From contig CAZFBD010000002.1 of NCBI GenBank assembly GCA_964517125.1, positions 48,402 to 112,401 of the forward strand: a stretch of DNA of 64,000 nucleotides. Direction: 5' to 3'. Position numbers and translations under genes: made by a program. Under the pieces are notes generated by a model that had not been told where the DNA came from, did not search any database, and saw only the letters and a program-made list of their open reading frames with translations. Below, piece by piece: positions 3,925-43,863 of the stretch. Numbering within the stretch: the stretch's first letter is position 1; each line of letters begins with the position of its first letter. Source of the stretch: an uncultured Acidimicrobiales bacterium. Lineage in GTDB: Bacteria; Actinomycetota; Acidimicrobiia; Acidimicrobiales; SHLQ01.

Positions 3925-4013
3925 ACTGCGGAGATGTCCTTTGGGCGGTGTGCTCTCAGGCTACCGAGGAGCCGTGAAGATCAGGAGGTCGTTCGGCAAT
4001 GGATCGGCAGCGG

Positions 4014-4460
4014 TCAGAACCAGCCCTGCACGGTGTCGTCGCCGCCACTGAACCACCACCAGGCTGCGAGTCCGGCGGCCGCCATGAGCATCACGGAAAC
4101 GATGATGGTGTTTCGTGGGATCGGACCCTCTTCTTCCAGTCCCGGCACCTTCTTGCGAAGGTAACGCAGCGCCCGATCGGCCCAGACGAAGTCCCGGCTC
4201 AAGATGACCAGGCCGGCGGCCATGGCGATGGCACCCGGGCCGGGAAGCACCATCATTGCGACTCCGGCAAGAAGCAGTACGAACCCGAGACCCATACGGG
4301 TCAGCCGAATCAGGGCATGACGCCATGCCTGTGCATTCGTCTCTTCGGCGTGGCCGACCTCGAGCTCGGCCCGAATGGCTGCATCGCGAAAGTCGGTGTC
4401 CCCGTCGCCATCAACATCAGCAGGATCCACGTTCGTCAGCGGCGGAAGTTCGTCGGTCAC
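4014..4460 (-). CDS. PGPGW-motif small membrane protein (start uncertain)
   Basis: The sequence contains VLPGPGAIAMAAGLVILSRDFVWADRALRYL and two TM segments. The longest ORF runs to 4571, but its first ~37 codons lie in the intergenic repeat/palindrome. I therefore prefer the in-frame GTG at 4460; the GTGs at 4481 and 4484 are alternatives. Confidence 0.6.
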   Translation of the reverse strand: MTDELPPLTNVDPADVDGDGDTDFRDAAIRAELEVGHAEETNAQAWRHALIRLTRMGLGFVLLLAGVAMMVLPGPGAIAMAAGLVILSRDFVWADRALRYLRKKVPGLEEEGPIPRNTIIVSVMLMAAAGLAAWWWFSGGDDTVQGWF

Positions 4461-4566
4461 ACCATCAACCCTATTCGCCACCACCCAACCGTTCGCACAA
4501 CCGCACCAAACACCGTTCGCGCAACCCAGCCCCCGCAACAAAAACCGCAACACGCGCGCAAACCCC

Positions 4567-4593
4567 CACACCAGGGGCCTGGCCCCTCCTGTG
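4567..4593. repeat. GC-rich imperfect palindrome CACACCAGGGGCCTGGCCCCTCCTGTG (intergenic repeat family, copy 1)
   Basis: Read directly from the sequence. The central GGGGCC-T-GGCCCC is perfectly symmetric. Related copies lie at 4686, 43621 and 43778. Confidence 0.7.
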
Positions 4594-4685
4594 AGGATAG
4601 TGCTACTGAGGGTGAGGTTCGCAACGATATAGTGCCAGCAAGCGTTGAATTCTCAAGGGTTTGACCACCAGAGGCGAGTACGTGA

Positions 4686-4714
4686 CCACACCAGGAGCCT
4701 GGCCCCAGGTGTGG
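4686..4714. repeat. GC-rich imperfect palindrome CCACACCAGGAGCCTGGCCCCAGGTGTGG (copy 2)
   Basis: Read directly from the sequence. It lies 92 bp downstream of copy 1, and the spacer between them has lower GC. Confidence 0.7.
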
Positions 4715-4760
4715 TGTTGTGACCGCGGAGTGTGGTTTCTGGAAGGTGTTGGCCTGGTTC

Positions 4761-4766
4761 TAGAAT
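4761..4766 (+). promoter_or_regulatory. Candidate -10 hexamer TAGAAT for a leaderless bcp transcript
   Basis: TAGAAT is followed by 6 nt (CTGGGG) and then the bcp ATG at 4773. There is no Shine-Dalgarno sequence. The spacing fits a transcription start at the A of the ATG, as is common in actinobacteria. Confidence 0.4.
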
Positions 4767-4772
4767 CTGGGG

Positions 4773-5243
4773 ATGGCTGAGAAACCGAATCCGTTGGCTG
4801 TTGGTACCGAAGCGCCGGACTTCACGTCCACCACGTTTGATGGCGCGACCGTGTCGTTGTCGGCGTTGCGGGGCCAGAAGGTGGCGCTGTACTTCTACCC
4901 GAAGGACGCCACGCCCGGATGCACGAAGCAGGCGTGCAACCTGCGGGACAACCGCGAGCTGCTCGCCGAGCACGACATCGCCGTCATCGGTGTCTCTCCA
5001 GACGACGACGCGAGCCATGAGCGTTTTGCCGGGAAGCAGGACTTGAACTTCCCGCTCATCGCCGACCCCGACCACACGATCATCGAGGCCTATGGCGTGT
5101 GGGGTGAGAAGAAGCTCTACGGCAAGACCTTCATGGGGCTGCAGCGGGCCACCTTCCTCATCGATGAGGAGGGCGTGATCCAGCACGTGTTCAAGCGACC
5201 CAAGGTCGCCGACCACGCGCAGGAGATCATCAGCAAGCTCTGA
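4773..5243 (+). CDS. bcp: Thioredoxin-dependent thiol peroxidase (peroxiredoxin Bcp)
   Basis: 156 aa with the motif YFYPKDATPGCTKQAC (peroxidatic and resolving Cys in a PxxxTxxC context). Confidence 0.9.
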   Translation: MAEKPNPLAVGTEAPDFTSTTFDGATVSLSALRGQKVALYFYPKDATPGCTKQACNLRDNRELLAEHDIAVIGVSPDDDASHERFAGKQDLNFPLIADPDHTIIEAYGVWGEKKLYGKTFMGLQRATFLIDEEGVIQHVFKRPKVADHAQEIISKL

Positions 5244-5246
5244 CCG

Positions 5247-7118
5247 CTACTCGACCAGGTCGTTCCCGACATCGATGACCACGCCCCATCGGCGCTGCAC
5301 CTCGACCACGACCACAGCGAACACAACGCTCAGGAGGGCGACGACGGAGCGCCGGTTGGTCAACCGAAACACGGCCGCGAGGCCAAGCGCAGCTGCGGGC
5401 ACAAGCGCCCCCGCACCGAAGCCGAACGCACCGGCGATGTAGACGCCCGGCGACCAGAGTCGATGCACCTCGAGATTCGTCACCTGATCCAGAAGATCGA
5501 TGGTCGGTGAGCCTCCGAAGGGAACCAGCAGCTCCTCGACCCTGACAATGGAGCGAACCAGCCCGGCAAGGAGCCAGACCGACACGCCGAAGGACAACCA
5601 ACCGGCCGCCGCCCGGCCCATCACGGAGCCCTCACGAGCACCTTGCATACGACGTGACGTGCCGGCCAACAGCAGAACCGAGCTGGCGAAGAGCGCCTCG
5701 TTCAGCCAGTCGAATTGAACAATCGGATCCTTCTCTGCGCGAACGATCACGGCGCTGTCTGTCCGTTCGATGCTCCAGTACTCCCGATCCGACGGTCCGG
5801 TCTGCGGACCATCGCTTCGGTGGCGCCAATAGCCATCGCCACGTTCACTGAAACCGAACTCCGGTCGAAGGAGTTGCTCATCACTGAGTTCCTGCAACCG
5901 GTCGACGCTGCGCGATGACGACCCTTCCAGCACGACCTCCACCAGGGTCCAGTCTTCGAAGGGGTTCTCGATGATGTTGCGCTCCACCCGAACGTTCACG
6001 TCTTCGGAGCCGACCTCCACCGGCACGGTGACGAGATACGCGACCGATTGGGCATGGGCGTCCCGACCGATGACCGCCAGCAGCGGAAGCATCAACCCCG
6101 CCGCGACAAGCCCGAAGGTCAACCAACGCCGACTGCCGGTGGGCCAGATCACCGGGCCGAAACGTTCACCAACCAGCACCGCCCGGATCAGCGACCGCGA
6201 GACCCAGACGGCTCCGACAGCACCGACGGTCACAAACGCCAGCACCGTCCACGAGTTCACGCCAACCTCGGCCCCCGACGAGTTCAGGTGGGTCACACCA
6301 TCGAACCGAACAAAGAGACGCCAGAGTCCTCGTGTTGACCCTTCCGTCGCAACCGTTCGGTGCCAGGTGAAGCCATCGGCCACGATCTGGTTGATCAAGC
6401 TCACCGGAAACATCCACAACCACGCCCACCCCATCGCTCCGACGACGAACGACGCCGATCGCCACACGGATCGACCCGGCTTCAGACGCGTGGCCTGATG
6501 GGCGACCGCCAGCAGGACGACAAGGCAGTAGATGCTGATCCGCACCACGCGCATCATGCTCAGCAGCAGACTCGTTCCCGTCTGTGCCGCGAGCGGGTCG
6601 TAGGAGACCATGAGCACCAACCCGAGCCCGATTCCCAGACCGACTGCTCCGATGAGACCGGTCGCGCTGGCCAGCACGAGCCGAGCCCATCGCTGCGAGG
6701 GCACGTCGACCCGCAGGTGACCAGGTGCTCGCAGCCAGGCCCGCACACCGATGGCGAGCGGCCCACCAAACGCCAGCAGCCAGGCCAGCCAGGTTTGGGA
6801 TCGTGGCCGCTCTCCCGCCTCAGCGGCGACCTCCGCCGTTGTGGGCCAGACCGAGGTTCCGGCCTCCGCTGCTGCTTGTGCCGGCGCCGCCGTGTCGGGA
6901 ACTGTGTCGAGGTCGGAACCCTTCAACCCACCGAACGCAGCGATGGTCACGAGGATGAGGAACCCGAGCATGGCGACCCGGAACGCTGCGCTTCGTCGGC
7001 GCGCCCGCACCACGACCGTCCGCTCGATCCGCGCCCAATCGGCGTCTGTCGTCGCCGGCACGATGGGGTTGGCGGGCGGTGTGATCGCCTCCGCCAGGGT
7101 GGTGTCCAGCGACGTCAT
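5247..7118 (-). CDS. Large polytopic membrane protein of unknown function, co-transcribed with the ECF sigma factor
   Basis: 623 aa with many hydrophobic segments. A 4-bp overlap (7115-7118) joins it to the upstream sigma gene. I see no recognisable zinc-binding anti-sigma (HxxxCxxC) motif. Confidence 0.65.
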   Translation of the reverse strand: MTSLDTTLAEAITPPANPIVPATTDADWARIERTVVVRARRRSAAFRVAMLGFLILVTIAAFGGLKGSDLDTVPDTAAPAQAAAEAGTSVWPTTAEVAAEAGERPRSQTWLAWLLAFGGPLAIGVRAWLRAPGHLRVDVPSQRWARLVLASATGLIGAVGLGIGLGLVLMVSYDPLAAQTGTSLLLSMMRVVRISIYCLVVLLAVAHQATRLKPGRSVWRSASFVVGAMGWAWLWMFPVSLINQIVADGFTWHRTVATEGSTRGLWRLFVRFDGVTHLNSSGAEVGVNSWTVLAFVTVGAVGAVWVSRSLIRAVLVGERFGPVIWPTGSRRWLTFGLVAAGLMLPLLAVIGRDAHAQSVAYLVTVPVEVGSEDVNVRVERNIIENPFEDWTLVEVVLEGSSSRSVDRLQELSDEQLLRPEFGFSERGDGYWRHRSDGPQTGPSDREYWSIERTDSAVIVRAEKDPIVQFDWLNEALFASSVLLLAGTSRRMQGAREGSVMGRAAAGWLSFGVSVWLLAGLVRSIVRVEELLVPFGGSPTIDLLDQVTNLEVHRLWSPGVYIAGAFGFGAGALVPAAALGLAAVFRLTNRRSVVALLSVVFAVVVVEVQRRWGVVIDVGNDLVE

Positions 7119-7651
7119 ACCTCGCTCCTTTCTGCGAGCCGCTCCGTGTCCAGCACGGACGCAAGCATCTGCTTTGCCCGGTGCAGGTGTGTCTTCACGG
7201 ATCCCGACGAGACGCCGAGAGCCTCGGCGATCTGGTCGACGGTCAGGTCGTCATAGAACCGAAGGACGATGGCCTGCCGTTGACGCATCGGTAGCGCCAA
7301 GACCGCCGCCCGCACGTGCTCAGAATCCTCAGATAGTGCGTCGTCGGGCAACGGGTCAGTGGAATCCCGTTCACCCTTCAGGTGTCGCCGTTCCAGCACG
7401 AGGCGCCGGACCCGGGATCGGCAATGGTTGACCACCGCCGCGCGCAGGTAGGAGCCCAGCTGCTCGGAATCGCGCAGCGTCGGAGGGTTCTCCACAACCC
7501 GAACGAACACATCGTGCACGACTTCCTCGGCCAGTCCGCGGCCGTCCACCAGCCACGCGGCGAGGCCGACAAGACGAGCGTGGTCGCGCCGATACGCGTG
7601 CTCAAGATCGAAGGCGGTCGCCGTGTACACACCTTGGAGACGTCCAGCCAC
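7115..7651 (-). CDS. ECF-type RNA polymerase sigma-70 family factor
   Basis: 178 aa. The region 2-like segment is EEVVHDVFVRV. Region 4 is LPMRQRQAIVLRFYDDLTVDQIAEALGVSSGSVKTHLHRAKQML. Confidence 0.9.
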   Translation of the reverse strand: MAGRLQGVYTATAFDLEHAYRRDHARLVGLAAWLVDGRGLAEEVVHDVFVRVVENPPTLRDSEQLGSYLRAAVVNHCRSRVRRLVLERRHLKGERDSTDPLPDDALSEDSEHVRAAVLALPMRQRQAIVLRFYDDLTVDQIAEALGVSSGSVKTHLHRAKQMLASVLDTERLAERSEV

Positions 7652-7681
7652 GCCAAAACGTTGACACAGCCGCCAAAGAAA

Positions 7682-10600
7682 TCATGCAGTCGGGGTGGGC
7701 AGTCCGTCGACGTATCGAATCGTGTTGGCCCGGCGGGCCGGGACGCGATCCCCCGGTGTGATGATGCCGGTGAGGTTGCAGGGGTCGCAGCCGTTGACCT
7801 CGATCACGACCTGGGCGCGTTCGGTTCGCTTCACGCGGCCGAGGTGATCGGCGGCCTCCGGCAGCGCATACTGCTCGCCACCAAAGCCGGACACGAAGCG
7901 TCCGCCCCGGATCAGACCCCGGGCCTCCAGACGGCGAAGTGCCCACAGCACCTCTCGCCAGGGAAGTGCAAGCTGTTCCCGGGCGACGAGCCCGTGGAAG
8001 ACCACGCCCCAGCGGGCCAGCAACTGTTCGGCGATCGCCTCAGCCAGCTCGTCGGCGTGTGCGTCCAGCAAGTGCTCGGCGAACACCGTCCATCGGCCCT
8101 CTCCCCCGGCCCGCGCGGCCGAGCCCCGGCGAAGCCCTCGACTCCGCCGTTGCTCGGTGACCTTGCGATCTCGGGCGTCGAACAACGACCGAACGGCGTG
8201 GAAGCTGTCGGCGTGGATGAGTCCGCGAGCCACCAGGTCCCACAGCCCCTGCTCCACGTCGGCGGGCAGGCGGCCGGTCGCCTCGCCGAGTTCATGATGG
8301 AACCGGGCACCCCGAGTGGTGAGCTCCTCGTACAGTTCGGCCGCGGCGCCCGCCTCGGGCGGGGCGGGACGCTCCGGCCCGCGGATCGCTGCGACGAGCC
8401 AATCCAGATCGTTGCGAAGCGCCAGCGTGATCGGTGTGGCCTTCGTGGCGACCTGCCGTTGGGGATTTGGGGCCCGGCCCTCGCCGGAGGCGCAGCCCGC
8501 CATGCGACCCCACGTGATGTCTCCGGCCAGGCTCCGCCGATCCAGCAGATCCGGCGAATGCGAACGCAGACGACCAGCAAGCAGGTGTGGCTCCCACGCT
8601 GCCGCCGCAGCATGCCAACCCTGGAGCTGGGCGACGACGTTGGTGAGCCCGTCGACTCCGTGCAGCTGGCTGCCGGGCGCCAGGTGCTGCCATTCGAAGA
8701 GGAAGCGCATGAAGTCCTGGGCCGTGGCGGGATCCACCCGAGCGCGCTTGTTTTTCTGGCTGTACACGTGCATACGGGCCAGAAGCCGTTTGGAACACCA
8801 TTGTTCGCCCGTCAGGTGTTCACCCGCCCCAATGGCACCATCCTCGGGCAGCCAGCTGCCGCGAATGGCGACTCCTTCGTTCTCCAACCCGACCAACACG
8901 AAGTCGATGCTGGAGCGGGGCTGGTTGAGTTGCCGGGCCAGCTGCTCGGCCGACGTGACCGCCACAATCTCCAGGCGCCCTCGAACAGCGGTCTCCACGT
9001 CGTCGACGATCTCTCGCCACGGCAGCACACCCCACCAGCCGTCTCGCTCGTCCACACGCCCATCTGCCCGCAGCGCATCGAAGTCGCTTCGCCAGGCATC
9101 GACAGGCCGGGTGACGACCAACGATTCGAGCAGCTCGTGCAACTCGTCCGGCGTCCGAGGATCGGGGATCACCTGCCCCGCCACCTCGGCGATGGCCTCG
9201 GGCGAGACTTTGCCGATCTCGGTGAGATCCACCGGCAGACCGCGGCGCAACGGCACGGCCCGAGTTCGGCGATCGATGGCCTCGGCGTCGTCGAGGAACG
9301 TGAAGGCCTTGCCGACGAGCAACTCATGACACAGCGGAGACGGCTCGGTGGAGTCGACGCACACGACCTCGATGTCGTCGGACTCCAGGCGTTCGACCAT
9401 CGCCCGCAGCCCGTCGACGTCCATGGCTTCCCGCAGCGTGTCGTTCATGGTCTGACGGACGATGACGTGGTCCGGAAGCTCAACCGGGCCGGACACGTTC
9501 TCCTGGCACGCGGCCGCCAGGGGGAACAGCGCCGCCATCATGTCGTCGGCTTCCATCCGCTGGATCGGCGGCGGGTTCTTGCGGCCGCCCTTCCACCGGA
9601 GCACCAGCAGCGATCGGTTCAGGTTCCACCTCCACCGGCTCAAAAACATCGGCGATGGCGGGACGAGCACCGCGTTGGTGAGCGTCTGCTCGACCGTGGT
9701 GGACTTCAGGAAGTGCCGCACGTCGGCCAGCGGAAAGCTGTGCTGTGGCCCGAGCGAGAGGACGACCGCGTCGTCGGACGCGGCCGCCTGCAGTTCGAAG
9801 TCGAAGTTTTTGCAGAACTTCTTTCGCAGCGACAGCCCGAACGCCCGGTTGAGGCGGGCACCGTTGGGGCTGTGCACGACGAGCTGCATTCCGCCGCTCT
9901 CGTCGAAGAACCGTTCGATGATGAGCTTGTCCCGGGTGGGCAGCGTGCCGAGGATCGCCAGGGATGCGGCCAGGTAGCGGATGACCTGTTCGGCCGCATC
10001 GGCGTCGACCTGGGCAGCCCCCATGAGCCATCGGCGAGCGGCATCCGGATCGCCGGCTCGGAGCCGTTGCTCCACCTCGCGCCGGATGTGGCAGACCTCT
10101 TCGGACAGCTCAACCGTGCGGCCGGGCGCCTCCCCGAACCAGACCGGGATGGTCGGCGGAAGCCCTTCAGCGTCGACCACCCGAACGACGCCGGGTTCGA
10201 TACGGCGGATGCGCCAACTGTGGGTGCCGAGCGTGAAGATGTCGCCCGGCATGGACTCGGTGGCCCAGTCCTCGTTGACGGAACCGATGAACGTCTCGTC
10301 CGGGTCGAGCAGAACCCGGTAGTCGCCGAGCTCGGGAATGGCCCCGCCGCTCGTGGCCGCCGCCATGCGGGCGCCCTTGCGACCCCGGACCAGCCCGTTG
10401 ACCTCGTCGTGGTGAATCCAGTGTGAGCGGACACCCCGGCCGGTTCGTACGCCTTCGGCCGCCAGCTCGAGGCACTGATCGAAGTCGCCACGGGGAAGGT
10501 TCCGGTACGGGGCTGCACGGGTGACGAGCGCGAACAGGTCATCGACTTCCCACTCGTCGGCCGCCACCTCGGCCACCAGCTGCTGGATCAGGATGTCGAG

Positions 10601-12001
10601 CGGAGCATCGGGAGGCAGGAGCGCATCGAGCCGACCGCTGTGGACAGCGGTGAGGAGACCACAACACTCGGCCAGATCGTCGCGGGTCTGCGGATAGAGA
10701 CGCCCCTTGGGCACCCCGTACCGGTTGTGGTTGGCGCGGCCAACGCGCTGGAGGAACGTGGCGATGTTGCGGGGTGAGCCGAGCTGGCAGACCAGATCGA
10801 CCGGGCCAACGTCGATACCGAGCTCCAAGGACGCCGTGGCCACCAGCGCCTTGAGGTCACCGGCCCGAAGGCGACGCTCGACCATGAGCCGCCGATCCTT
10901 GGAGAGGCTGCCGTGGTGAGCGACCACATTTGCTTCGGCGTCCTCGTCGGTCTCGGCCAGACGCTCCCCCAACTCGTGTGAGATGCGCTCGGCCATACGG
11001 CGGGTGTTCACGAAGATGAGCGTGGTGGTGTGCGCCCGAACCTGATCGGCGATGCGATCCAGGATCTCGCCCATCTGTTCGGCGGGCGCAATGGCCTCCA
11101 TCTCCGAGGGCGGCAGCTCCAGCGCGAGGTCGAGTTCGCGCACGTGGCCAACGTTGACGATCCGACACTCGGCCTCGCCGGTGGCGTCCTCCCGGTTGCC
11201 AACGAGAAGGTTGGCCACCGTGGAGATGGGCTTCTGCGTGGCCGACAGCCCGATGCGCACCAGGGGTCGTGTGGGTGCGGGCTGCAGTGCCGGGTCCGAC
11301 AGCTGCTCGCGGGTGCGGAGCACGTCGGGCCGCTCCACAACAGCGGACTCGCAAAGATGCGTGAGCCGTTCGAGGGTGAGGGCAAGGTGCGAGCCCCGCT
11401 TGTCTCGGGCCAGCGCGTGGATCTCGTCGACGATGACGGTTTCCAGCGTGCTCACGGCCGCCCGACCCTTGGCCGAGGTGCACAACAGATAGAGCGACTC
11501 CGGAGTCGTGACGATGATGGCCGGCGGCTTGCGCACCATGGCCGCCCGCTCCGAGGTGCTCGTGTCCCCCGAGCGAACCCCGACCCGAATGGTGGGGGCC
11601 GTCATGCCCAGCTCCTTTGCCGTCGCCGCGATCTCCTGCAGCGGCCGCTCGAGGTTCTCGGCAATGTCCACCGCCAGCGCTTTCAGCGGCGACACATACA
11701 TGACCCGGGCAATGCCGTCGACGGTCTCTCCTCGCTCGTGGGCTCGATACAGCCGATCGATCGGGACAAGGAACGCCGACAAGGTCTTGCCCGACCCGGT
11801 GGGCGCAGCCACCAACGTGTCCTCACGGTTCGCGATGTGTGGCCACGCTGCCTGCTGCGGCGGCGTGGGACCGTCGGGAAACCGCCGCGTGAACCACGTG
11901 CGAACAGCCGGATGAAAGCCGTGGAGGGACGGGTGATCAAACAGGCTTGGGGCATCGGACGGAGACGATGCAACCTGCGAATGAGCGTCAAGAATGGCCA
12001 C
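7682..12001 (-). CDS. lhr: Lhr-family large ATP-dependent DNA helicase (superfamily 2)
   Basis: 1,439 aa. Motif I is VAAPTGSGKT, and a DEIH box (VIVDEIHAL) is present. The long C-terminal extension is typical of Lhr. Confidence 0.9.
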   Translation of the reverse strand: MAILDAHSQVASSPSDAPSLFDHPSLHGFHPAVRTWFTRRFPDGPTPPQQAAWPHIANREDTLVAAPTGSGKTLSAFLVPIDRLYRAHERGETVDGIARVMYVSPLKALAVDIAENLERPLQEIAATAKELGMTAPTIRVGVRSGDTSTSERAAMVRKPPAIIVTTPESLYLLCTSAKGRAAVSTLETVIVDEIHALARDKRGSHLALTLERLTHLCESAVVERPDVLRTREQLSDPALQPAPTRPLVRIGLSATQKPISTVANLLVGNREDATGEAECRIVNVGHVRELDLALELPPSEMEAIAPAEQMGEILDRIADQVRAHTTTLIFVNTRRMAERISHELGERLAETDEDAEANVVAHHGSLSKDRRLMVERRLRAGDLKALVATASLELGIDVGPVDLVCQLGSPRNIATFLQRVGRANHNRYGVPKGRLYPQTRDDLAECCGLLTAVHSGRLDALLPPDAPLDILIQQLVAEVAADEWEVDDLFALVTRAAPYRNLPRGDFDQCLELAAEGVRTGRGVRSHWIHHDEVNGLVRGRKGARMAAATSGGAIPELGDYRVLLDPDETFIGSVNEDWATESMPGDIFTLGTHSWRIRRIEPGVVRVVDAEGLPPTIPVWFGEAPGRTVELSEEVCHIRREVEQRLRAGDPDAARRWLMGAAQVDADAAEQVIRYLAASLAILGTLPTRDKLIIERFFDESGGMQLVVHSPNGARLNRAFGLSLRKKFCKNFDFELQAAASDDAVVLSLGPQHSFPLADVRHFLKSTTVEQTLTNAVLVPPSPMFLSRWRWNLNRSLLVLRWKGGRKNPPPIQRMEADDMMAALFPLAAACQENVSGPVELPDHVIVRQTMNDTLREAMDVDGLRAMVERLESDDIEVVCVDSTEPSPLCHELLVGKAFTFLDDAEAIDRRTRAVPLRRGLPVDLTEIGKVSPEAIAEVAGQVIPDPRTPDELHELLESLVVTRPVDAWRSDFDALRADGRVDERDGWWGVLPWREIVDDVETAVRGRLEIVAVTSAEQLARQLNQPRSSIDFVLVGLENEGVAIRGSWLPEDGAIGAGEHLTGEQWCSKRLLARMHVYSQKNKRARVDPATAQDFMRFLFEWQHLAPGSQLHGVDGLTNVVAQLQGWHAAAAAWEPHLLAGRLRSHSPDLLDRRSLAGDITWGRMAGCASGEGRAPNPQRQVATKATPITLALRNDLDWLVAAIRGPERPAPPEAGAAAELYEELTTRGARFHHELGEATGRLPADVEQGLWDLVARGLIHADSFHAVRSLFDARDRKVTEQRRSRGLRRGSAARAGGEGRWTVFAEHLLDAHADELAEAIAEQLLARWGVVFHGLVAREQLALPWREVLWALRRLEARGLIRGGRFVSGFGGEQYALPEAADHLGRVKRTERAQVVIEVNGCDPCNLTGIITPGDRVPARRANTIRYVDGLPTPTA

Positions 12002-12882: not shown

Positions 12883-14391
12883 TCAGCCCAGACGCTCCGA
12901 CAAGGTGTCGAGGGTGTCGGCATCTGCAGCGGCCTTGTCCTCCCGATAGCCCTTGACCCGGGCGAACCGCAGCGCCAGGCCTCCCGGATAGGTCGTCGAG
13001 CGTTGCACCCCATCGATCGCGATCTCCACGACGAGTTCAGGTCGGGCGAACACTGTGATGCCCTCGCGGCTGACCTCCCGAGCGAGGATCGCCTCGGTCT
13101 GCCAGGCGAGCACGGCGTCGGTCAGCCCTTTGAAGGTCTTGCCCACCATGACGAAGTCTTCGCCGTTGCGCGCACCGAGGTGCAGGTTCGAGAGTCGCCC
13201 GGTTCGTCGACCATGTCCCCACTCGGCGCCGAGGACCACGAGATCGTAGGTGTGGACCGGTTTCACTTTGCGCCAGGTCTTTCCTCGTCGCCCGGCCGCA
13301 TACGGTGACGAGAGATCCTTCACCATGACGCCTTCGAGCCCATTGGCAAGGACGCGTGTGTTGAACGCTTCGGCCTGTTCGGGGTCATCGGTGATGATGC
13401 CTTCCACCAACGAATCGCCCACGACGTCCGCCAGCTGCGTCAGCCGATCACGCAACGGAACATCGATCAGATCGGTTCCGTCCCGATGCAGGATGTCGAA
13501 GAACTGGACAGACAGATCGACCCGGCCCGACGCTCCTCCTGAACTGAACGTGGAAGCAGTGTCCTGGAACATCTCGGGGCTGTCCTCCCGCATGCCCACC
13601 ACTTCGCCGTCCAGAACCACGGACTCGACCGGCAGCTCACGGACCCGATCGACCACCGCCGGCAGCCGCTCCGTGACGTCGTTCAGGTTGCGGGTGAACA
13701 GACGCACGTCGGTTCCGGATCGATGCGCCTGGATTCGGATGCCGTCGAGCTTTGCCTGAACACTCACCTCGCCGTCCAGCTCCCCCATCGCTTCGGCAGC
13801 CGAAGCCGAGGTGGCAGCCAGCATGGGCTGGACTCCCCGAAGCAGACGCAGCCCAACGTCCTCCAGACCGGCGCGGCCACTGGCCTGGGCGATCTGCGCC
13901 GTTTCGCCGAGATCGCCAGACAACATGGCGGCCCGGCGGACGACCGCAGCGGGCACGGCATTCGCCTTGGCGATTCCGTCGATCATGACACCTTCCAGCG
14001 ACCCCAGTCGGAGTCCCCCGACCAGCACGGAGCGAACGAACGAGCTCTCGCCTGCAGTCATTCGACCGAGGAGCGGGGCAAGCACATGTTCCCGCCGCTG
14101 CCGCGAGCCTTCGCCCCCGATTGCCGCGACCTCGGTCAGCGCTGCGTCCACCTCGCGAACGAGTACGGAAGGCTCGGCCGCCGGTTCGATCTCGAGCCCA
14201 TCGAGGAAGACCCACCCAACGCCGATTCGGCCCTGCTGCGGCTCTCCGGTGAGGAAACCGACAACGACTGCAAGCTCGGCTGCCGAGCACCTCCGGAGCA
14301 GATCCGCCAACAGCTCTCCCTTGGCCTTGCGCGAACTCGTCGCAGCCACCTGATCGGCAACGGTCACCAGATCGGTCAACGGCAGGTCCAT
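12883..14391 (-). CDS. lig: ATP-dependent DNA ligase (three-domain, Lig1/LigB-like)
   Basis: The true start is the ATG at 14391 (MDLPLTDLVTVADQVAATSSRKAKGELLADLL...). The adenylation motif I is VQAKLDGIRIQAH. At 502 aa it matches typical size. The track ORF (949 aa) is an artefactual N-terminal extension. Confidence 0.9.
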   Translation of the reverse strand: MDLPLTDLVTVADQVAATSSRKAKGELLADLLRRCSAAELAVVVGFLTGEPQQGRIGVGWVFLDGLEIEPAAEPSVLVREVDAALTEVAAIGGEGSRQRREHVLAPLLGRMTAGESSFVRSVLVGGLRLGSLEGVMIDGIAKANAVPAAVVRRAAMLSGDLGETAQIAQASGRAGLEDVGLRLLRGVQPMLAATSASAAEAMGELDGEVSVQAKLDGIRIQAHRSGTDVRLFTRNLNDVTERLPAVVDRVRELPVESVVLDGEVVGMREDSPEMFQDTASTFSSGGASGRVDLSVQFFDILHRDGTDLIDVPLRDRLTQLADVVGDSLVEGIITDDPEQAEAFNTRVLANGLEGVMVKDLSSPYAAGRRGKTWRKVKPVHTYDLVVLGAEWGHGRRTGRLSNLHLGARNGEDFVMVGKTFKGLTDAVLAWQTEAILAREVSREGITVFARPELVVEIAIDGVQRSTTYPGGLALRFARVKGYREDKAAADADTLDTLSERLG

Positions 14392-16062: not shown

Positions 16063-17327
16063 GCACGAAGAGTCGCGAGAGCGCCTTTCGCATCTCGTTC
16101 GTCGGGGGCAGCACACTCCTCGTTCTTGCAATGGCAGTGTTCGCCGTTGCCGTCCAGGCGCGTGCGGTGTCCGGCGGAGCGGAACGGTCGATCCAGATGA
16201 CGGAGAATCTCCGAATCGTCTCCGTCGCCCGCGCCGAGATCTCCATCGCGTCGCGGCTCGCAGCTGCCGACGACCAAGAAGACACCGTCGAGGCCTCCAC
16301 GCAGAACGCACTCGACACACTCATTCTCGCCGACACTGCCATCGACCAGGCCGCCTACCCGGACCTTGGCGAACGGTTCGATGCCTTCGAGGCTGCGGTC
16401 GCAACCCAGTCCGAGTTGTTGCGGTCGGGCACCTCGATGTCGAACGAGGCCGTCGACGCGGAGCTCGCAACCGGTCAGGCATTCGACTCGTTGGTGGAAG
16501 CGATCCGCGCGGAGCAGGCAGGTGCGATCGACGCGCTCGATGCCGACAACGACCTCATGAACCTGATCGGCTCGGTCGCCACGTTCATGGTGGCCTTCGT
16601 CGTCCCGTCCGCTGCCCTCTATGTGTTCGAATCCCTCCGGAACACGCCTCGCCGGTTGCGCGAATTGGAGCTCGAGGTGGACTCTGTACGCAATCGAACG
16701 ACCGCCGGGGCCATTGCCCTCCAGGTCGAAACCGAGACACTTCGTGCGAACAGCTTCGGCGAACCATCGGATGACACCGAGGCCAACATCCGCCGCTCGT
16801 TGCTGCGACTCGACCACCTGGCCAGCGCGAACGGCGCCCTCCATCGTTGGCGAAGCGAACCGGTTGACGTTCTGGCCATTGCCCACGAGGTACGGGTCTC
16901 GGTTGGAACTCGCAACATCATCATCGATGCATCGTCGCGGGCTCCCCTTGCCCAAGGCGACTCGGTCGAGGTTGCGCTCATCCTGAACGAGCTTGCGCGC
17001 AACGCGCTCCAACACGGCAGCAGCCCGGTCTCGCTTTCCATCCACGCGGATGGTGATGCCGTCCGGGCTGTGGTCGCAGACGCTGGGCCGGGTCTTCCCG
17101 ACGTCGTGCATGCCGCGATCTTCGAAGAGCGCGACCACGCCCTGCGCAACAACATGGCCAGCGGTCGGTTCGGATACGGCCTGTACGCTGCCCGTCTTGC
17201 TGCTGAGAGCATGGGGGCAACGTTGTTGCACGAGCGGACCGAAAACCAGACACTGCTCACACTGCGACTCCCCCTGTCTGAGGCGACGCAGGGCCCCGTG
17301 GTGTCCGAGGGCCGACGGGCTGCCTGA
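16059..17327 (+). CDS. Membrane sensor protein with an HATPase_c domain but no recognisable phospho-acceptor H-box (histidine-kinase-like)
   Basis: 422 aa with an ATGA overlap to the GGDEF gene. Two TM segments flank a ~150-aa helical extracytoplasmic region. The N-box (LNELARNALQHG), G1 (DAGPGLP) and G2 (GYGLYAARL) are present. The expected DHp region reads RRSLLRLDHLASANG, not HExxxP. Confidence 0.75.
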   Translation: MSTKSRESAFRISFVGGSTLLVLAMAVFAVAVQARAVSGGAERSIQMTENLRIVSVARAEISIASRLAAADDQEDTVEASTQNALDTLILADTAIDQAAYPDLGERFDAFEAAVATQSELLRSGTSMSNEAVDAELATGQAFDSLVEAIRAEQAGAIDALDADNDLMNLIGSVATFMVAFVVPSAALYVFESLRNTPRRLRELELEVDSVRNRTTAGAIALQVETETLRANSFGEPSDDTEANIRRSLLRLDHLASANGALHRWRSEPVDVLAIAHEVRVSVGTRNIIIDASSRAPLAQGDSVEVALILNELARNALQHGSSPVSLSIHADGDAVRAVVADAGPGLPDVVHAAIFEERDHALRNNMASGRFGYGLYAARLAAESMGATLLHERTENQTLLTLRLPLSEATQGPVVSEGRRAA

Positions 17328-17488: not shown

Positions 17489-20400
17489 GTGACCGGGAAC
17501 CGTCGCGATCTCTTTTGGGAGCATCGACGTGCGTTCGCAGCGATTCTTGCGACCGCGCTCGGTCTGTCGCTGCTGCTGTCGGGCTCGGTCAACGCCGCGC
17601 CCTCGGGACCAGCCGCATTCTGGTCGTTCGAGAACGGCACCGGCACCACGGTCAGTGACAGCTCGGCCAACGGCTTGGACGGCAGCCTCGTCGGTGGGGC
17701 CTGGACCGGTTCGGGAGCGATTGGCGGAGCGATCGACTTCACGGGTACCGCGCACGAGCGAATCACCGTGTCCGACCCAGCGAACGACCTGGACATCGGC
17801 CTCGATGAGGAACTCAGCCTGAGCGTGTGGTTCCAGAGCTCGGGCACACCTGCAGTATCCGATTTCTGGACACTGGCACGCCGACGCAACACCGGAGGGG
17901 CACCTGAGGGCTACGCGATGTTCCTGAGCGGCGGGGGTCCCCCGACGATCACCTTCGACCTCTGGTACGGCGCTTCCAGCAGTGGAATCACCATCGGTTC
18001 GCCAGACCTCACCGACGGTGGATGGCACCACGCCGTTGGCGTGATCGACGCTACGGGTATGGAGCTGTGGCTCGACGGGGTCCTGGTGGGATCCGCTCCG
18101 AAGACCTCATGGACGAGTTCGACCGCTGAGCCGTTCGTGATCGGGACCAACGCCGACGCAGACGATTCCATGTTCGACTTCGAGGGTTCCCTCGATGAGG
18201 TCGCCGTGTACTCCCGGGCATTGACTTCGGCCGAGATCGCCGATCTTTTCGACGACCGTGCAACGGCGCCACTCGTCGTGAACTCCACTGCCCTGGACGG
18301 CGATGCGTCGCCGGGCAACGGCAGCTGCGATACCGGCGGCACCAACTCGGAAGGCGCAACCGAGTGCACCCTGCGTGCGGCCATGGAAGAAGCCAACGCC
18401 GGATCACACAGCGAAATCGAGTTCTCCATTCCGACGAGCGACCCCGGCTACAACGGCACATGGTGGACGGTCAGCCCAACCATCGCCGGCGGCCTTCTCC
18501 CCTCGATCACCGGTATCACGCGAATCGATGCCACCACCCAACCCGGCTACACCTCCACACCACTCATCGCGCTCGACGGCGCCGACCGGGCACTGGAGGC
18601 CGGGATCGAAGATGGCCTGACCGCACAGACAGCCACGACCATCAGTGGCCTGTCGATTGCCAACTGGTCCGGGGATGGTGTTGTCGTCACAGCCGACGAT
18701 GTCACGCTGGACCGGTCGTGGATCGGCGTTCTTCCTGACAGCGCCGCCGCAGGAAACGACGCAACTGGCGTCGACGCCTTTGGTGGCGCCTCAAGGTTGA
18801 CCGTGTCAAACAGCGTGGTATCCGCAAGCTCGTTCAACGGCATACAAGCCGCTGGAGCAGATCTCGTCGTCGTCGGCAACCTCATCGGCGTCGGCCCAGA
18901 CGGTGTCACCCCGATGGGCAACGGGCGCAACGGCATTCGCCTGTACTCGAATGCCGTGGACGCAATCATCGGCAGGCCGGGCGAGGGCAACGTCATCGGC
19001 GACAACGGGGTTGTTGGTGTGGAGCTCGACGGCGACCCGGTCTCGGCGACCATCCAAAGCAACCACATCGGCACTGACGCCACCGCAACCGTCGACCTCG
19101 GCCACGGCGAGTCCGCCGTGCTCTTTCAAGAGACATCGGTCGACTCAACCGTCGGCTTTTCTGGCCTGGCTGCTGATCCGGCCGAGGCCAACGTCATGAT
19201 GTTCAACGGCGGACCCACGCCGTACGCCTCAGTGAACGTTCGCGACTCCGTGACCGGCATGGTCAGCATTCGCGGCAACTCAATCACCCGCAACGACGGC
19301 CTTGGCATCGACCTTGGCGAGGGCAGCGCTGTAAGCCCCAACGACGTGAACGATGCCGACGGTGGAGCGAACGACACCATCAACTTTCCCGTGATCACGG
19401 CAATCACACCGTCGACGCCCGGGATGCTCACCGTCGACTTCCTCTTCGATTCCGGAGTTGGCACCTACCACTACGACTTCTACTCGAGCCCCGCCGGACC
19501 AGATGCGAGCGGCTTCGGTGAGGGAGGCGTGTGGTTGGACGTCCTGGTGGCTGGAAAGTCCTCGACCGGAAGCGAAGCCTTCAGCCACGACATTCCCGGC
19601 AACGTCGGCGACGTCATCACCATGACGGCGACGCAGTCCAACGTCACGTTTCGAACGTCGGAGTTCAGCCAGTTTGGGGTGGCTGCGAGCACGACCGCCA
19701 CGGTCAACTCCACCGGTACCGCGTCGGATCAGACACCGGGCGATGGCCTCTGCAACACCGGTTCGGTGAACAGTGAAGGGCTGATGGAGTGCACGCTGTC
19801 TGCGGCTATCCAGGAAGCGAACGCAGCAGGTGCCGTGGACACGGTGGAATTCGACATTCCGACCAGCGACGGAGGCTACGACGGCATCAACGGCTGGTGG
19901 ACGATCAACGACAATCCCACCACCATCACCACGCCGCTCACGATCGACGGAACCACTCAAGCCGGGACGACGGTCAACACCGCTGCCGCACCCGCTCCGC
20001 TGAACAGCCAACCGACGATCCTCATCGACGGCACCGGGTTCTCTGGCGAGCTGCTCAACTTCGCGTCGGGCGCCGACAACTCCACTGTGATGGGGCTGGC
20101 CATCGGCGGAATCACAACCAATTCGGGTGATTCCGCCATCCAGTTCGGCGCTGTTTCCAACATGACCGTCGTTGGTAACCACATTGGGGTGATGCCCGAC
20201 GGGCTCACACCCATACCCAGTTCGGAAGGACTCGCCTTCTACCTCACGGCATCCAACGGTCAGGTGGGCGGCACCACCGCCGCCGATCGAAACCTGTTTG
20301 CCACCAACGACACCGACCTGGCCATGGGCTTCGACGCAGGTCTGATCGTGATTGAAGGAAACGAATTTGGCTACGACGTCAACGGTGACGTACTCAGCAC

Positions 20401-23400
20401 GTTCTCGACATCGGCGGCCATCGACCTTCGAAGCAACAATCAGGCCACCATCGGTGGAACCACCGTGGCACAGGGCAACCGAATCGCCGGAAGCACCGGG
20501 GGCGTCCTCGTCAGCGGCACGTCACGGGCGACCGTGCTCGGCAACGAAATGACGGGTCTCAATCGCCCCTCCATCGACCTGGGCGCCAACGATGGCACGC
20601 CGAATGATCCCGGCGACGGCGATACGGGACCCAACGATCTTCTGAACACGCCGGACAACGTTGCTGCCACGGAAGCAGCCGGCACGATCAGCGTCGATTT
20701 CGACCTCGATGTCCCCGCTGGCGACTATCGGGTGGAGTTCTTCACCAATCCCGGCCAGGCGCACCCAATGACCTTGCCGTGGACCGGGTCGTTCGCCTCC
20801 GCCGTCACGGTGACGCATCTCGGCGCCGGGTCCCAGGCGTTCTCGCACACGTTCGCCGGCACGGCCGGCTCGGTCGTCACCGCAACCGCAACCGAGGACC
20901 TTGGGGGCGGCTCCTACGGCGTCACGAGTGAACCTGGGGACTCCGCAATCGCCTTCGGGAGCACGGCCGTCGTGAACTCCAGTGGTGACAGCGCCGACTC
21001 CACCCCCGGCGACGGCCTCTGCGACACCGGCGCCCTCAACAGCGAAGGTGCCACGGAATGCACGCTGCGCGCTGCAATCGCCGAGGCGAACGCCAACGCA
21101 AGCCTGTCCGACATCACCTTCGACATTCCGACCTCGGACGCGGGCCACGACGCACCCAACAATCTGTGGACAATCAGCCCGACCACCGGGCTCGGCGCAC
21201 TCTCCAACGACATCACGATCGACGGAAGCACCCAGCCGGGCTGGGTCGATGACCCGGTCATCGTCCTCAGCGGCGACGTGGGCCCCGCCGGGCACACGGG
21301 CCTGACCATCACGGGCGACGGAGCGACCGTCCGATCGCTGTCGATCGTCTCATTCACCAACAACGGCATCGCCGTGTTGGGTGACGACACGCTCCTCGCG
21401 GCGAACTGGATCGGCGTGGATCCGACGGGAACGATCGGATCGAACGCAAACGGCGTCCTGCTCTCCGGGGCGAACGACACGATCATCGGCGGATCGACCG
21501 CTGACGCCAACGTGATCGCAGGCAACCGGTCGAACGGTGTGATGGCGCAGGCAGCGAGCGACGGCACCATCATCCGCGACAACAGCATCGGCACCGACAG
21601 CTCCGGCGCCATCGACCTCGGCAACGACGGCGACGGCGTCCTGGTGAACACGACCGGCACCACTCGACTACAGAACAATGACATCGCGTTCAATGACGGG
21701 GACGGACTGGCCACGGCGGCGGCCTCGACCGGCGACGTGTACATCGTCTTCAACACCTTCCGCTCGAATGGCGGACTCGGCATCGACCTCGACGACGACG
21801 GTGTGACCCCGAACGACGTCAACGACTCCGACACCGGCGTGAACGGTCTGTTGAACTTCCCGGTGATCACCGGCTTCAACGAGGTCGGGGCCAACACCGA
21901 AATCACGTACGAACTCGATGCGCCAGCGGGCGGCTACGTCGTCATCTTCGGCCGGAACCCGTCGGGCACCGACCCCTCCGGAAACGGCGAGTTCGAGGAC
22001 GGGTTCGGCAACGCCAACATCATCCATCCCGGTGGCGGAACCGTCTCATTCACCACAACGGGCTACAGCTCGCTGAATCCCGGCGATACGGTCACGGCGC
22101 ACGTGTACGGCCAGTCCGTGAACATCGGATCCGAGCTGAGCGCACCACTCGTGTACGCCCAGAAGGTGGGATTGGTGAACTCCACGAGCGACGTCGCCGA
22201 TCTGAGCCCCGGCGATGGGCTCTGTGACACCGGCGCACTGAACTCCGAAGGCGACCCCGAGTGCACACTTCGGGCCGCCATCGCCGAAGCCAACGCCAGC
22301 GCCGACATGACCACAATTGAGTTCGACATTCCCACAAGCGACGCTGGACATGACGCAATCAACGGCTGGTGGACCATCCAACAGCTCACCGACTTCCCCG
22401 ACATCACGGACTCCGTGACGATCGATGGCACGACCCAGGCCGGGTCAACGGTCAACACCACCGCCGCGGGCGCAACCATGGACAGTCGACTCCGGGTGAT
22501 GATCGACGGCTCAGCCACTGCCGGGCTCGAAGGCCTGCGGTTCGTGGCTGGCTCGGATGGATCGGCGCTTCGGGGTCTGTCCATCACCGGCCACACGAAG
22601 ACCGGCGGCTCCGGCGTGGAAATCGAGAGCTCGAACGTGGTCATCGCAGGAAACCACTTCGGTATGGCACCCGATGGCGTGACCATCGCGAACACCGATG
22701 AAGCGATCAGCATCTTCGGAAGTGCCAACGACATCAGCGTTGGTGGAACGGCTCCAGCCGACCGCAACATGTTCGGTGGTTCCAACGGTTGGACCATCGC
22801 CATCGGAGCCTCCGCCACCGACGTACGCGTTGAGGGCAACGATTTCGGCTACGACGCCACCGGGTCGACGCAAGCCAACACCTCGGCGGGCGGCGTGCGC
22901 CTGAGCAACAACTCACAAGCAACCGTGGGCGGCGTCGCTCCGGCACAGACGAACCGCTTCGTCGGTTACGCCACCGCCATCTCGGTCCGGGACAACGCCC
23001 AGGCGACGGCGCTCGGCAACTCCATTCTCACCGGGACCGGCGTTGGCATCGATCTGGTTGGCGACGGCGCCACCGCGAACGATCCCGGCGATGCGGACAG
23101 CGGCGTGAATGATCTGCTCAATCACCCGGACATCACCAACGTGACTCACGCTGCCGGTTCGGTCACCGTCACGTGGAACCTGGACGTTCCTGCTGGCGAT
23201 CACCGCATCGAGTGGTTCCGCAACCCAAGCGGAACAGAGTCCGGGGCCTTGCGACAGGGATTCTCGCTGGCCCACACCCAGACGGTCACCAGTACGGGAG
23301 TCGCCCAGACCGGCCTCACCACCACCTTCGTCGCCGATGTCGATGACGACATCTCGGCAACCACAACAATCGATACCGGTGGCGGCACGTTCACCGCGAC

Positions 23401-26400
23401 GTCGGAGTTCTCCGCAGCGATGGAAACCAACGCAGCTCCGACCGTCGTCGACCCGGCCGACCAGACCGACGCAGAGAACGACAGCATCTCGCTCACCATC
23501 GGCGCAACCGACCCCGACAGCGATGCGCTCGCATGGGTTGCCAGTGGACTTCCGCCCGGCCTCACAATCGGCGCAGGTTCGGGAGAGATCAGCGGAACGC
23601 TCACCTTCACCAGCAGCGGCGTCTACTCCGTGACAGCCACGGCAACCGACCCCGACGGGGAGTCGGACAGCACCACCTTCAACTGGACCGTGAACAACAC
23701 GAACCGTGTTCCCCTCGTCACCGATCCTGGGGATCAGAACGATGCCGAGAACGACATCATTTCACTCACGATCGCCGGCTCGGATCCCGACGGCACCCCC
23801 CTCACCTGGGGCGCGACGGGCCTGCCAAACGGCTTGTCGATCGCACCGGGAACCGGAGAGGTCAGCGGAACGCTCTCCTACACGAGTTCAGGCACGAGCC
23901 CCGTCACCGTGACCGCAACCGATGGAACCGACACCACACAGGTGCAGTTCGACTGGATCGTGGCCAACACGAACCGAGACCCCGTCGTCACCGACCCGCC
24001 CACGCAGACGAACGCTGAAGGCAACACTGTCAGCTTCACCGTTGGAGGCACCGATCCCGACGGGCAGTCCTTGTTCTGGACCGCCACCTCGCTCCCTCCA
24101 ACGCTCACGATCAACTCCGCCACCGGCGAAATCTCGGGGACACTGACCTTCACCTCGGCGGGCACATACTCGGTCACGGTCACCGCACGAGACCCCGAGA
24201 ACGCCACCGACAGCACCACCTTCACCTGGCAGGTCAACAACACGAACCTGGGCGTCACCGTGAACAGTCCCGGAGATCAGACCAACGCGGAGACCGATGT
24301 CGTCAGTCTGTTCATTAACGGCTCAGACGGGGACAACGACCCGCTGATCTGGACCGAGACCGGACTACCCGACGGACTCAGCATCGTTGCTGGCACGGGG
24401 GAGATCGCGGGCACGGTCAGCTACGACGCTGCTGGCGGCCACACCGTGACCGTGACGGCAACCGACCCCGGCGGAGCTTCGGACTCGACCACATTCAACT
24501 GGACGATCGACAACACGAACCGGGCACCCGTCGTGACCAACCCCGGGCCGCAGGCAGACGCGGAGAACGACACCATCTCCCGCTTCGTCGTGGCCAACGA
24601 CCCCGACGGAGACACGCTCACCTGGACAGCCACCGGCCTTCCGAACGGGCTCGTGATCGATTCGGCGACCGGCGAAGTGACCGGCGTGCCAACCTATGAG
24701 TCCGAGGGGACCCAAACCGTGTCGGTCACGGTCGCCGACGCGGAGTCCGGCACGATCGCATCGTTCGACTGGACCATCACCAACACGAATCGGGCTCCCA
24801 TCGTCGGCGGCCAACCCGACATCGTGTCAGCCGAAGATGACGTCATCCTGCTCACGAACTCGGCGTCCGACCCCGACGGTCAGACCGTCACCTGGGCTGC
24901 GAGTGGTCTGCCCGATGGCCTGACGATCGACGCCGCAAATGGTGATATCACGGGAACGATTTCCTTTGATGCTGCCGGGCCGCACACTGTGGTCGTCACA
25001 GCGACCGATCCCGAGGCAGCGAGCGCAGACACGACGTTCCAGTGGACGGTCGACAACACGAACCGCGCACCGATCGTCACCAATCCCCCAGACCAGACCA
25101 ACGCCGAAGGCAACGTCGTCAGCTTCAGCGTCGGCGGCACCGACCCCGACGGACAGACGATCGCCTGGTCCTCAACCGGACTCCCCACGGGGTTGACCAT
25201 CGATCCAGCCACGGGTCTCATCAGCGGAACCATTCCGTTCACCGCGGCAGGCACGTGGACTCCTTCGGTCACAGCGACAGACCTGGAAGCCGCGGCCACA
25301 TCGAGTTCGTTCATCTGGACCGTCACCAACACGAATCTCGGCGTCATCGTCAACAGTCCGGGTGATCAGCAGGACGCAGAGTTCGCCACCGTGTCGCTGT
25401 TCATCAACGGATCCGATGGAGACAACGAGCCGCTCACCTGGTCGGCCACCGGACTGCCCGACGGACTTTCGATCGACACCGCAACCGGAGAGATCTCGGG
25501 CACGTTGTCCGGGACGGCCGCCGGTGTTTCAACGGTGCAGGTGACTGCCTCCGAGCCCAGCGGGCTCTCCGACAGCACCACCTTCGAGTGGACCGTCGAT
25601 CAGGTGAACCAGGCGCCCACGCTCACGAACCCCGGCCCACAGTCGGGCACGGACGGCACGGCGACCAGCCTGAATCTGACAGCATCCGATCCCGATGGCG
25701 ATGCGCTCAGTTGGTCGGCGATCGCGCTACCTCCTGGCCTGACGATCAACGGGACGACCGGACGAATCTCCGGAACCCCGAACACAACCGGCAGCTTCAC
25801 CGTCCGAGTCACCGTCTCCGACGGGATCGACGAATCCACGCGAGCATTCGTGTGGACGATCACAGCGGCAGCGATCACGCCGCCAGCAACCACCACGACC
25901 ACCGCACAGCCGGCTCCCACGACGACCGCAGCGGTCGCACCGCAGACGACGGCTCCACCTGCCCCCACGACGACCCGTCCGACCCAGCCGACCAGCTTCC
26001 CGTCCACCACCGTCCCGATCGAGGTGCCCGACGGGCTGGCCTTCCGCCCGGTGGAGGCACGCGACGACACCATCGTCATTCGTAGCCAGGAACTCGAGAT
26101 CCTGGCAGTCCTGTCCAACGACTTCCTCAACCCGGGCACCCAGATCGTGGCTCTCGACCAGCCCGAAGCTGGCGAGGTTCGCCTGCTGAACGATGGGTCG
26201 ATCGTGTTCGACCCACCGCCCGGGTTCGCTGGCGAACTCACCTTCGGGTACACAATCGAGGACGAGTCAGGGACGACCTCCTCAGCCATCGTCCGCCTTG
26301 TCATCGCCGTTGCCCTTGAACAGACCGTCGGCTCCGCAACAGTCCCCGTCAGCGAAGGCCTTGACGACGTCGTGGGCGCATTCTTCACCCGCATCGGTTC

Positions 26401-43584: not shown

Positions 43585-43620
43585 ACACCAAACCCTTCTC
43601 CCCCACCCAACGTGACCACT

Positions 43621-43656
43621 CCACCACATCTGGGGCCAGGCCCCTCATGTGGTTGG
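43621..43656. repeat. GC-rich imperfect palindrome CCACCACATCTGGGGCCAGGCCCCTCATGTGGTTGG (copy 3 of the intergenic repeat family)
   Basis: Read directly from the sequence. It has the same GGGGCC-W-GGCCCC core as the copies at 4567 and 4686. Confidence 0.65.
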
Positions 43657-43797: not shown

Positions 43798-43852
43798 TTT
43801 GGCCGCGGAACGTGCTGCTTGGTGGATTGACGCGGATGTAACTCAGGTGAGT

Positions 43853-43858: not shown

Positions 43859-43863
43859 TTGGT

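Follow-up and report, generated by a model that had tools for sequence, protein, structure and literature searches.

Among described small bacterial repeats, those closest to the one analysed here are MITEs, REPINs/BIMEs and the palindrome-associated elements (PATEs) derived from IS200/IS605. PATEs are non-coding, carry subterminal imperfect palindromes at both ends and show no target-site duplication. MITEs, by the definition adopted here from a review, are non-coding elements of about 50-800 bp with terminal inverted repeats, and some bacterial MITEs carry promoters (PMC10969869). In a REPIN, two inverted REPs (i.e. short imperfect palindromes with conserved 5' and 3' flanks) stand on either side of a spacer that is poorly conserved and reaches about 110 bp in length, and together they can form a hairpin (PMC3337134). 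Our literature search for REPs or MITEs in the class Acidimicrobiia or the order Acidimicrobiales returned no papers.

The window (the whole 64-kb stretch of DNA analysed) contains a non-coding repeat unit of ~200-220 bp in two copies, 39 kb apart and in opposite orientations, hereafter copy A (bcp locus) and copy B (ACAD locus). It shares with PATEs the subterminal imperfect palindromes, the missing target-site duplication and the lack of coding capacity. Unlike in IS200/IS605, whose ends are not mutual inverted repeats, ~21-24 nt outside each palindrome are inverted-repeated here, and no TnpA or TnpB gene lies near the element. Bacterial MITEs (e.g. Correia/NEMIS, MITEAba12 and QMITE; PMC10969869) are likewise ~200 bp long and non-coding, bear terminal inverted repeats tens of bases long, fold into a long stem, lie in intergenic DNA near promoters and occur in more than one copy and orientation. 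The present repeat differs from them in that (i) no target-site duplication is detectable, (ii) no parent IS or transposase was found, (iii) two copies are seen and (iv) its arms are G+C-rich, each with its own short palindrome at the inner end. With REPINs/BIMEs (PMC3116915, PMC3337134) it has in common two inverted units of palindrome plus flank, a poorly conserved spacer, a possible hairpin, an extragenic position and no target-site duplication; it departs from them in its spacer of 121-143 bp, in its actinobacterial host (Acidimicrobiia), in the loss of one palindrome and in that the accessible DNA revealed no RAYT.

We propose, with a probability of roughly one half, that the repeat present once at each locus is an old, decaying relic of MITE-like (or REPIN-like) type, lineage-specific, non-coding and non-autonomous. 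Terminal inverted repeats, two mutually inverted copies and the absence of the element from relatives make a small decaying mobile element the most likely reading, rather than a regulator or an RNA gene, and both the anatomy and the conservation pattern fit the MITE definition given above. This reading is not proven: two copies in ~79 kb, fuzzy ends and the failure to find a target-site duplication or a transposase count against it.

Anatomy of the two copies

Copies A and B (~203 and ~219 bp, respectively) are both within the size range of MITEs, and each consists of two terminal inverted-repeat arms and a core (Table 1). Arm length is ~38-55 nt overall; the inverted-repeat search returned arms of 55 nt with 73% complementarity in copy A and of 32 nt with 75% complementarity in copy B (43611-43642/43776-43807). 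The outer boundaries of both copies are uncertain by about 10 nt. Open reading frames over the two regions are spurious, out of frame and run in from the flanks, and thus indicate no coding capacity. Both copies are strictly intergenic and lie just outside the apparent core promoters of the neighbouring genes. At copy A these neighbours, PGPGW (-) and bcp (+), are divergently transcribed, as first described.

Table 1. Coordinates of the two element copies and of the features that flank copy A
Feature	Position in window	Strand	Basis or remark
PGPGW gene	4014-4484	-	left flank of copy A
Direct repeat ACCGTTCGC(A/G)CAACC, two copies	4489-4503, 4513-4527	+	C/A-rich spacer between PGPGW start and copy A
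Element copy A, ~200 bp, non-coding	4539-4741	+ (reference orientation)	inverted repeat, long-stem fold, alignment to B(-)
Left terminal inverted-repeat arm of A, includes local palindrome 4564-4596	4539-4593		inverted-repeat search, DNA folding
Core of A, lower GC (51%)	4594-4685		GC count; alignment to B
Right terminal inverted-repeat arm of A, includes local palindrome 4685-4715	4687-4741		inverted-repeat search, DNA folding
bcp	4773-5243	+	right flank of copy A; ATG at 4773
Element copy B, ~219 bp	43600-43818	- (reverse complement of A)	alignment, folding
Arm of B on glyoxalase side, counterpart of A right arm, intact palindrome 43623-43653	43603-43653		inverted-repeat search
Core of B, ~30 nt longer than A core	43654-43775		GC count, alignment
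Arm of B on ACAD side, counterpart of A left arm	43776-43818		inverted-repeat search, alignment

The preliminary description took a 29-nt palindrome as the conserved unit. Palindromes are present where it placed them (4567-4593 and 4686-4714), with centres at T4580 (arms 4564-4579/4581-4596, 81% complementary) and T4700 (arms 4685-4699/4701-4715, 87% complementary). They are, however, the inner feet of longer arms, which reach ~21-24 nt beyond each palindrome on the outer side, and the unit is the whole ~200-220-bp element with its 38-55-nt terminal inverted repeats. The strings quoted there all occur at, or within 1-2 nt of, the positions reported; copy A contains CGTTGAATTCTCAA at 4643-4656 and GACCGCGGAGTGTGG at 4721-4735. 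The lower GC content between the palindromes is also borne out (51% against 64.7% for the window), and copy B has a similar value of 52% over 43653-43767. The direct repeat at 4489-4527 does exist in two copies, but it is weak as a tandem repeat (TRF score 38). We also considered whether it is a reiterated piece of an arm, and its similarity to the arms is no greater than that of composition-matched shuffles.

The local palindrome is intact at three of the four ends, and each of these three folds, as DNA, into a hairpin of -9 to -12 kcal/mol. In copy A, the hairpin energies are -8.8 (+ strand) and -10.8 kcal/mol (- strand) for the left-arm palindrome, and -9.3 and -12.0 kcal/mol on the two strands for the right-arm palindrome. 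The palindrome of copy B, centred on A43638, reaches about -12 kcal/mol. No hairpin forms at the fourth end (43763-43799), where the folding energy of -0.9 kcal/mol is poorer than that of shuffled sequences: on the ACAD side of copy B the outer half of the arm is kept, while the inner palindrome half (43763-43779) has decayed. Read in the orientation of copy A, the centre base of all four palindromes is T.

Such hairpins could point to a REP doublet (REPIN/BIME-like), in which inverted REP units fold as single-stranded DNA and are mobilized by a single-copy Y1 (RAYT/IS200-like) transposase. The extragenic pair of inverted REPs (palindrome plus flanks, recognizable at three of four ends, with the fourth decayed) and the capacity of both copies to form one hairpin from two inverted units agree with that anatomy, although the 121-143 bp between the palindromes exceeds the typical maximum spacer of 110 bp (PMC3337134). 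The hairpin energies at three ends and the common central T fit as well, and a missing target-site duplication is expected for this class; by contrast, neither a RAYT nor a Y1 transposase was found in ~79 kb. The literature retrieved concerns Pseudomonas and enterobacteria, and we know of no REPIN described in Actinobacteria. Moreover, one end has kept its outer arm and lost its palindrome, so the long inverted repeat, rather than the REP hairpin, looks like the conserved feature. We consider a REP doublet unlikely.

Conservation between copies

Global alignment of A(+) with B(-) scores 146.5 and that of A(+) with B(+) 109, compared with a mean of 48.9 (sd 7.0) for shuffled sequences (z = 13.9 and 8.6, respectively). 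The similarity of the two loci is thus well above that expected of GC-rich sequence. The recurrence of the architecture at 43.6-43.86 kb, which had been noticed previously, is therefore real in the sense that a second copy exists there; this copy is nevertheless inverted, retains one intact palindrome and has a core that is 51% identical. The A left arm matches the B right arm, taken as its reverse complement, at 86% identity and the B left arm at 76%, and the cross-locus arm pairs rank first and third among the 367 inverted repeats of the window. As the copies are mutually inverted, they have opposite orientations toward the downstream + strand genes.

Conservation is concentrated in the arms, where between-copy identity is 71-80%, in contrast to 51% plus 22 gap columns in the core. 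This is the pattern expected if selection acts on the ends only. Alignment of all four ends reveals ~35 conserved bases outward from the palindrome centre, with the consensus (C/G)CAC..CCGCGG.CA.AACCACCACAYCWGGGGCC (outer to inner). The motif GGGGCCWGGCCCC has three matches against 0.22 expected, a count reached in none of 100 shuffles, and GGCCCCWGGTGTGGTG has five against 0.15 expected, again reached by no shuffle. In the core, GTTGAATTCTCAAGGGTTTG of copy A is the only motif that is clearly common to copy B(-), and the shared core motif GTTGAA...TCAA.G.TTTG aligns in the A(+)/B(-) orientation.

Corresponding sites in relatives

At the corresponding sites, relatives carry only 52-69 bp and no element. 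For copy B, the relative compared is GCA_020628865.1 (loci L057/L058), whose ACAD is 92% identical and which is syntenic with the window over >14 kb (i.e. CcmB, sortase, DUF5317, EamA, FAD-oxidase, ACAD, TetR and GPDH). Its gap between FAD-oxidase and ACAD is 52 bp long with two operator-like palindromes AACTCAnnTGAGTT; the same gap in the window holds a glyoxalase gene and copy B. Upstream of bcp, only 68-69 bp without the element are present in L050 (Bcp 90% identical) and L051 (82%). At both loci, however, the neighbouring gene (PGPGW or glyoxalase) is also missing or relocated in relatives. Because gene content next to the element differs too, there is no clean empty site, and absence of the element could reflect larger rearrangements. 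Nor was a clean empty site found in L060, L063 or L064-L068, which are non-syntenic at the junction.

In every relative examined, the genes between Lhr and mrp are ordered differently, and four relatives show three orders. The window (3925-12001) was compared with L051, L064, L066 and L067; it has Lhr, sigma, 623-aa gene, bcp, element, PGPGW and mrp; L051 has Lhr, GGDEF/EAL, PGPGW, sigma, 601-aa gene, bcp and mrp; L064 and L067 have Lhr, (MFS), PGPGW, a small ORF and mrp. The interval from the Lhr helicase gene to mrp is a gene-order hot spot. The 623-aa protein encoded downstream of the sigma gene and its counterpart in L051 share only 32% identity.

This variability raises the alternative that the element is the scar of a gene-block rearrangement, i.e. 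a recombinase site at the edge of inserted or relocated DNA that does not transpose independently. The extra DNA would be bcp, the 623-aa gene and the ECF sigma gene at locus A and the glyoxalase gene at locus B, and at both loci the element lies at one end of the extra segment with the same element end outward; the Lhr-to-mrp interval, in which copy A lies, has three gene orders among four relatives. However, there are only two cases, and a matching orientation has a chance of 1 in 2. A second site was not found at the opposite edge of either segment, no recombinase gene lies nearby, attC-type core sites (RYYYAAC/GTTRRRY pair) are absent on inspection, and the sigma/bcp block of L051 is bounded by plain 69-bp spacers. 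We judge a rearrangement scar quite improbable. In a related comparison, we examined the element as an integron attC site and rejected it: only the left end of B has ACCCAAC, without a complementary GTTGGGT at the other end, the expected length is 57-141 bp against ~200 bp, and no integrase was found.

Promoters, operators and possible transcripts

A TANNNT hexamer lies 5-7 nt before the start codons of bcp, ACAD and probably PGPGW (window 4761-4772, 43853-43863 and 4461-4473 on the - strand), with no Shine-Dalgarno spacing. For bcp it is TAGAAT (4761-4766), found 6 nt upstream of the ATG as originally reported. In actinobacterial promoters, a TANNNT close to the start codon is the geometry expected of leaderless transcripts, and this suggests that the bcp, ACAD and probably PGPGW mRNAs are leaderless. 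The same arrangement is kept in relatives (L050 655-670, L051 9983-10000 and L057 4497-4512), which suggests that the core promoters are not part of the element. Scans found no consensus sigma-70 promoter at either locus. They also found no intrinsic terminator (GC-rich hairpin with T-tract; 0 sites at both loci), which supports the initial view that the hairpins are not simply terminators.

The palindromes might alternatively be operators for a dimeric DNA-binding protein (a regulator or nucleoid protein) common to the bcp and ACAD promoters. Palindromic half-sites do lie upstream of the two genes, and stress- or redox-related genes (bcp and the ECF sigma gene) are nearby. Yet the palindromes are not kept upstream of the orthologous genes in relatives, and one of the four has decayed where the non-palindromic outer arm is kept. 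ACAD has, furthermore, a conserved operator-like palindrome of its own outside the element: TAACTCAGGTGAGTTA, directly upstream of the gene (window 43839-43855), overlaps the putative -10 hexamer TAACGT, and a TetR gene follows ACAD. There is one palindrome of this type in the window and two in tandem in L057 (4468-4506). Typical operators are also shorter than a 29-bp palindrome with 38-55-nt arms. Operators shared by these two genes are thus a most implausible explanation. A shared regulatory cassette, one of the options initially put forward, is similarly disfavoured: the 52-69-bp upstream regions of relatives lack the element, the apparent core promoters lie outside it and the two copies face their genes oppositely.

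Another option put forward initially was a small structured RNA gene. In a broader form, the core would provide a promoter and transcription would run into the adjacent palindrome, which would yield a short hairpin RNA or readthrough to the downstream gene. Each copy as a whole folds into a single long stem, and on the + strand these folds beat shuffles in both copies (z = -3.4 for A and -4.0 for B; -1.5 and -1.8, respectively, on the - strand). Since the + strand is favoured in both although B is inverted relative to A, there is no conserved folding strand, i.e. the favoured strand is not homologous between the copies. No Rfam match was found at the gathering threshold over the 64 kb or at E up to 10 over both copies, and the core is the least conserved part of an element that relatives lack.

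The ECF sigma gene is preceded by a promoter-like sequence of the ECF type, TGTCAACGTTTTGG..GGACGTC (window 7639-7667, - strand), which is kept in L051 at about 12895-12925. Its best non-self match in the window is the B(-) core at 43672-43696, which agrees with TCAACG.TTTGG...GGACGTC at 21/26 positions (score 25), and the equivalent position in copy A faces bcp. The next best score in the window is 22, however, and the bare pattern TCAAC-N15-18-CGTC occurs at chance frequency (five found against 4.4 expected). The match is degenerate in copy A (about 13/26 positions by eye), and in copy B such a promoter would read into the glyoxalase gene from its 3' end, in antisense. A putative ECF promoter in the B core is therefore a weak lead, and a structured RNA or portable promoter with hairpin appears very unlikely.

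Search for further copies and for mobility genes

An nhmmer profile of the four arms found no further arm in the window, in 9.5 kb to its left (L061) or in 5.9 kb to its right (L069), i.e. in ~79 kb of the source genome including the window. The same profile found none in roughly 100 kb of non-redundant DNA from the relatives' loci. Searches with blastn gave no match to the element in plasmid and phage collections.

The degenerate 21-nt arm motif CCACAYCWGGGGCCWGKCYYC, which matches all four arms, was scanned in genome, metagenome and viral contigs. Viral contigs yielded none, and there are 16 matches in one genome per species of 185,579 species and 27 in the JGI metagenome collection. Each of these matches is single; most lie in coding sequence, and inspection showed them to be unrelated. 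Samples of the source organism are apparently absent from the scanned metagenome collection. The counts are close to the chance number, by our own estimate of that figure, which indicates that no independent population of copies was found. To judge from these copy searches, the element family appears to be narrow. If the density of two copies per 79 kb were uniform, it would extrapolate to tens per genome; REP families comprise tens to hundreds of extragenic copies.

Pfam analysis of about 37 window ORFs, together with Pfam gene tables of the flanks, identified no transposase, RAYT or integrase, and no PF01797-type protein (RAYT, Y1); a RAYT gene associated with a REPIN would be bounded by the same REPs. 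No target-site duplication, a feature that flanks MITEs, is visible on inspection at the arm ends of either copy. The hexamer AACGTG, present at both ends of B, was considered as a 6-bp target-site duplication and discarded because it aligns to arm sequence of A and hence lies within the arms.

All population contigs of the source organism carry the element, with at most 2 SNPs, and contigs identical to the window are found in JGI 3300039175 and ENA ERZ23495428/63. The closest protein homologues of the window ORFs come from MAGs named Acidimicrobiia or Acidimicrobiales. Logan contigs from two sequencing runs (L003/L004) both end at base 4557, inside the A left arm and within a short CG repeat (4553-4559). 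These ends could mark another copy or a repeat-induced graph branch, or else a strain polymorphism.

Possible origin and significance

Under the MITE-like reading preferred here, a transposase encoded elsewhere in the genome would recognize the conserved ~35-55-nt arms, the recognized unit would have moved into intergenic DNA, and the core, having no conserved function, would drift. That the element is mobile, that a cognate transposase exists and that the rest of the genome contains more copies is what we infer. The proposal of a MITE- or REP-like element made on first reading is thus favoured by the inverted repeats, the lack of coding capacity, the inverted copies and the absence from relatives' sites, but it is held back by the low number of copies (two) and by a target-site duplication and transposase that were not found.

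More far-reaching possibilities are that the copies belong to a REPIN-like system, the first from an actinobacterial lineage (Acidimicrobiia), in which a single domesticated transposase keeps tens of copies, or that they are a portable ECF-sigma-type promoter cassette that rewires neighbours such as bcp. Both are compatible with the likeness of the B core to the ECF sigma promoter and with the element's location where variable gene blocks begin or end, and we regard the pair as a long shot.

If confirmed as mobile, the MITE-like repeat would stand for a new family of small elements that do not move autonomously, from a class of uncultured and little-studied actinobacteria. The repeat could then serve as a strain marker and might drive gene-order changes around bcp/PGPGW and glyoxalase/ACAD. 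Its practical value is mainly negative, in that these GC-rich palindromes should not be annotated as bcp/ACAD operators, terminators or sRNA genes. It opens no long-standing question and is an ordinary lineage-specific repeat.

Other repeats and features

Between the two loci, the window contains a 3077-aa ORF (17489-26722, +) with eight tandem units of 270-273 nt (~91 aa) and a conserved FxWT..NTN motif; its product is probably a giant repeat-domain surface protein. ARAGORN found no tRNA in the window that would explain the element. Just past the right end of the window (L069 about 16150-16200, i.e. ~65.1 kb), there is a fragment like a tRNA 3' half with a GGTTCAAATTC T-arm on the - strand, where ARAGORN found no complete tRNA. 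It adjoins a 448-aa DUF222 gene, the C-terminus of which is encoded by the last window ORF (63672-64000), and may be what is left of an att site from an integrated element.

Several repeats unrelated to the element were also seen. In L050, from the closest relative (Bcp 90% identical), positions 100-200 contain an 18-bp inverted repeat, ACCGCGTCATAGCGACAA...TTGTCGCTATGACGCGGT, with ~45 nt between its arms, which may be a different small element. A chance match to an Actinomycetota MAG (L010 2985-3110) contains a ~120-bp element within the inverted repeat GGGGGTCAGCCCTCCA. In three contigs of one Deltaproteobacteria MAG (L009, L017 and L019), a ~120-nt repeat, near-identical among them, lies close to one locus end and probably caused assembly breaks.
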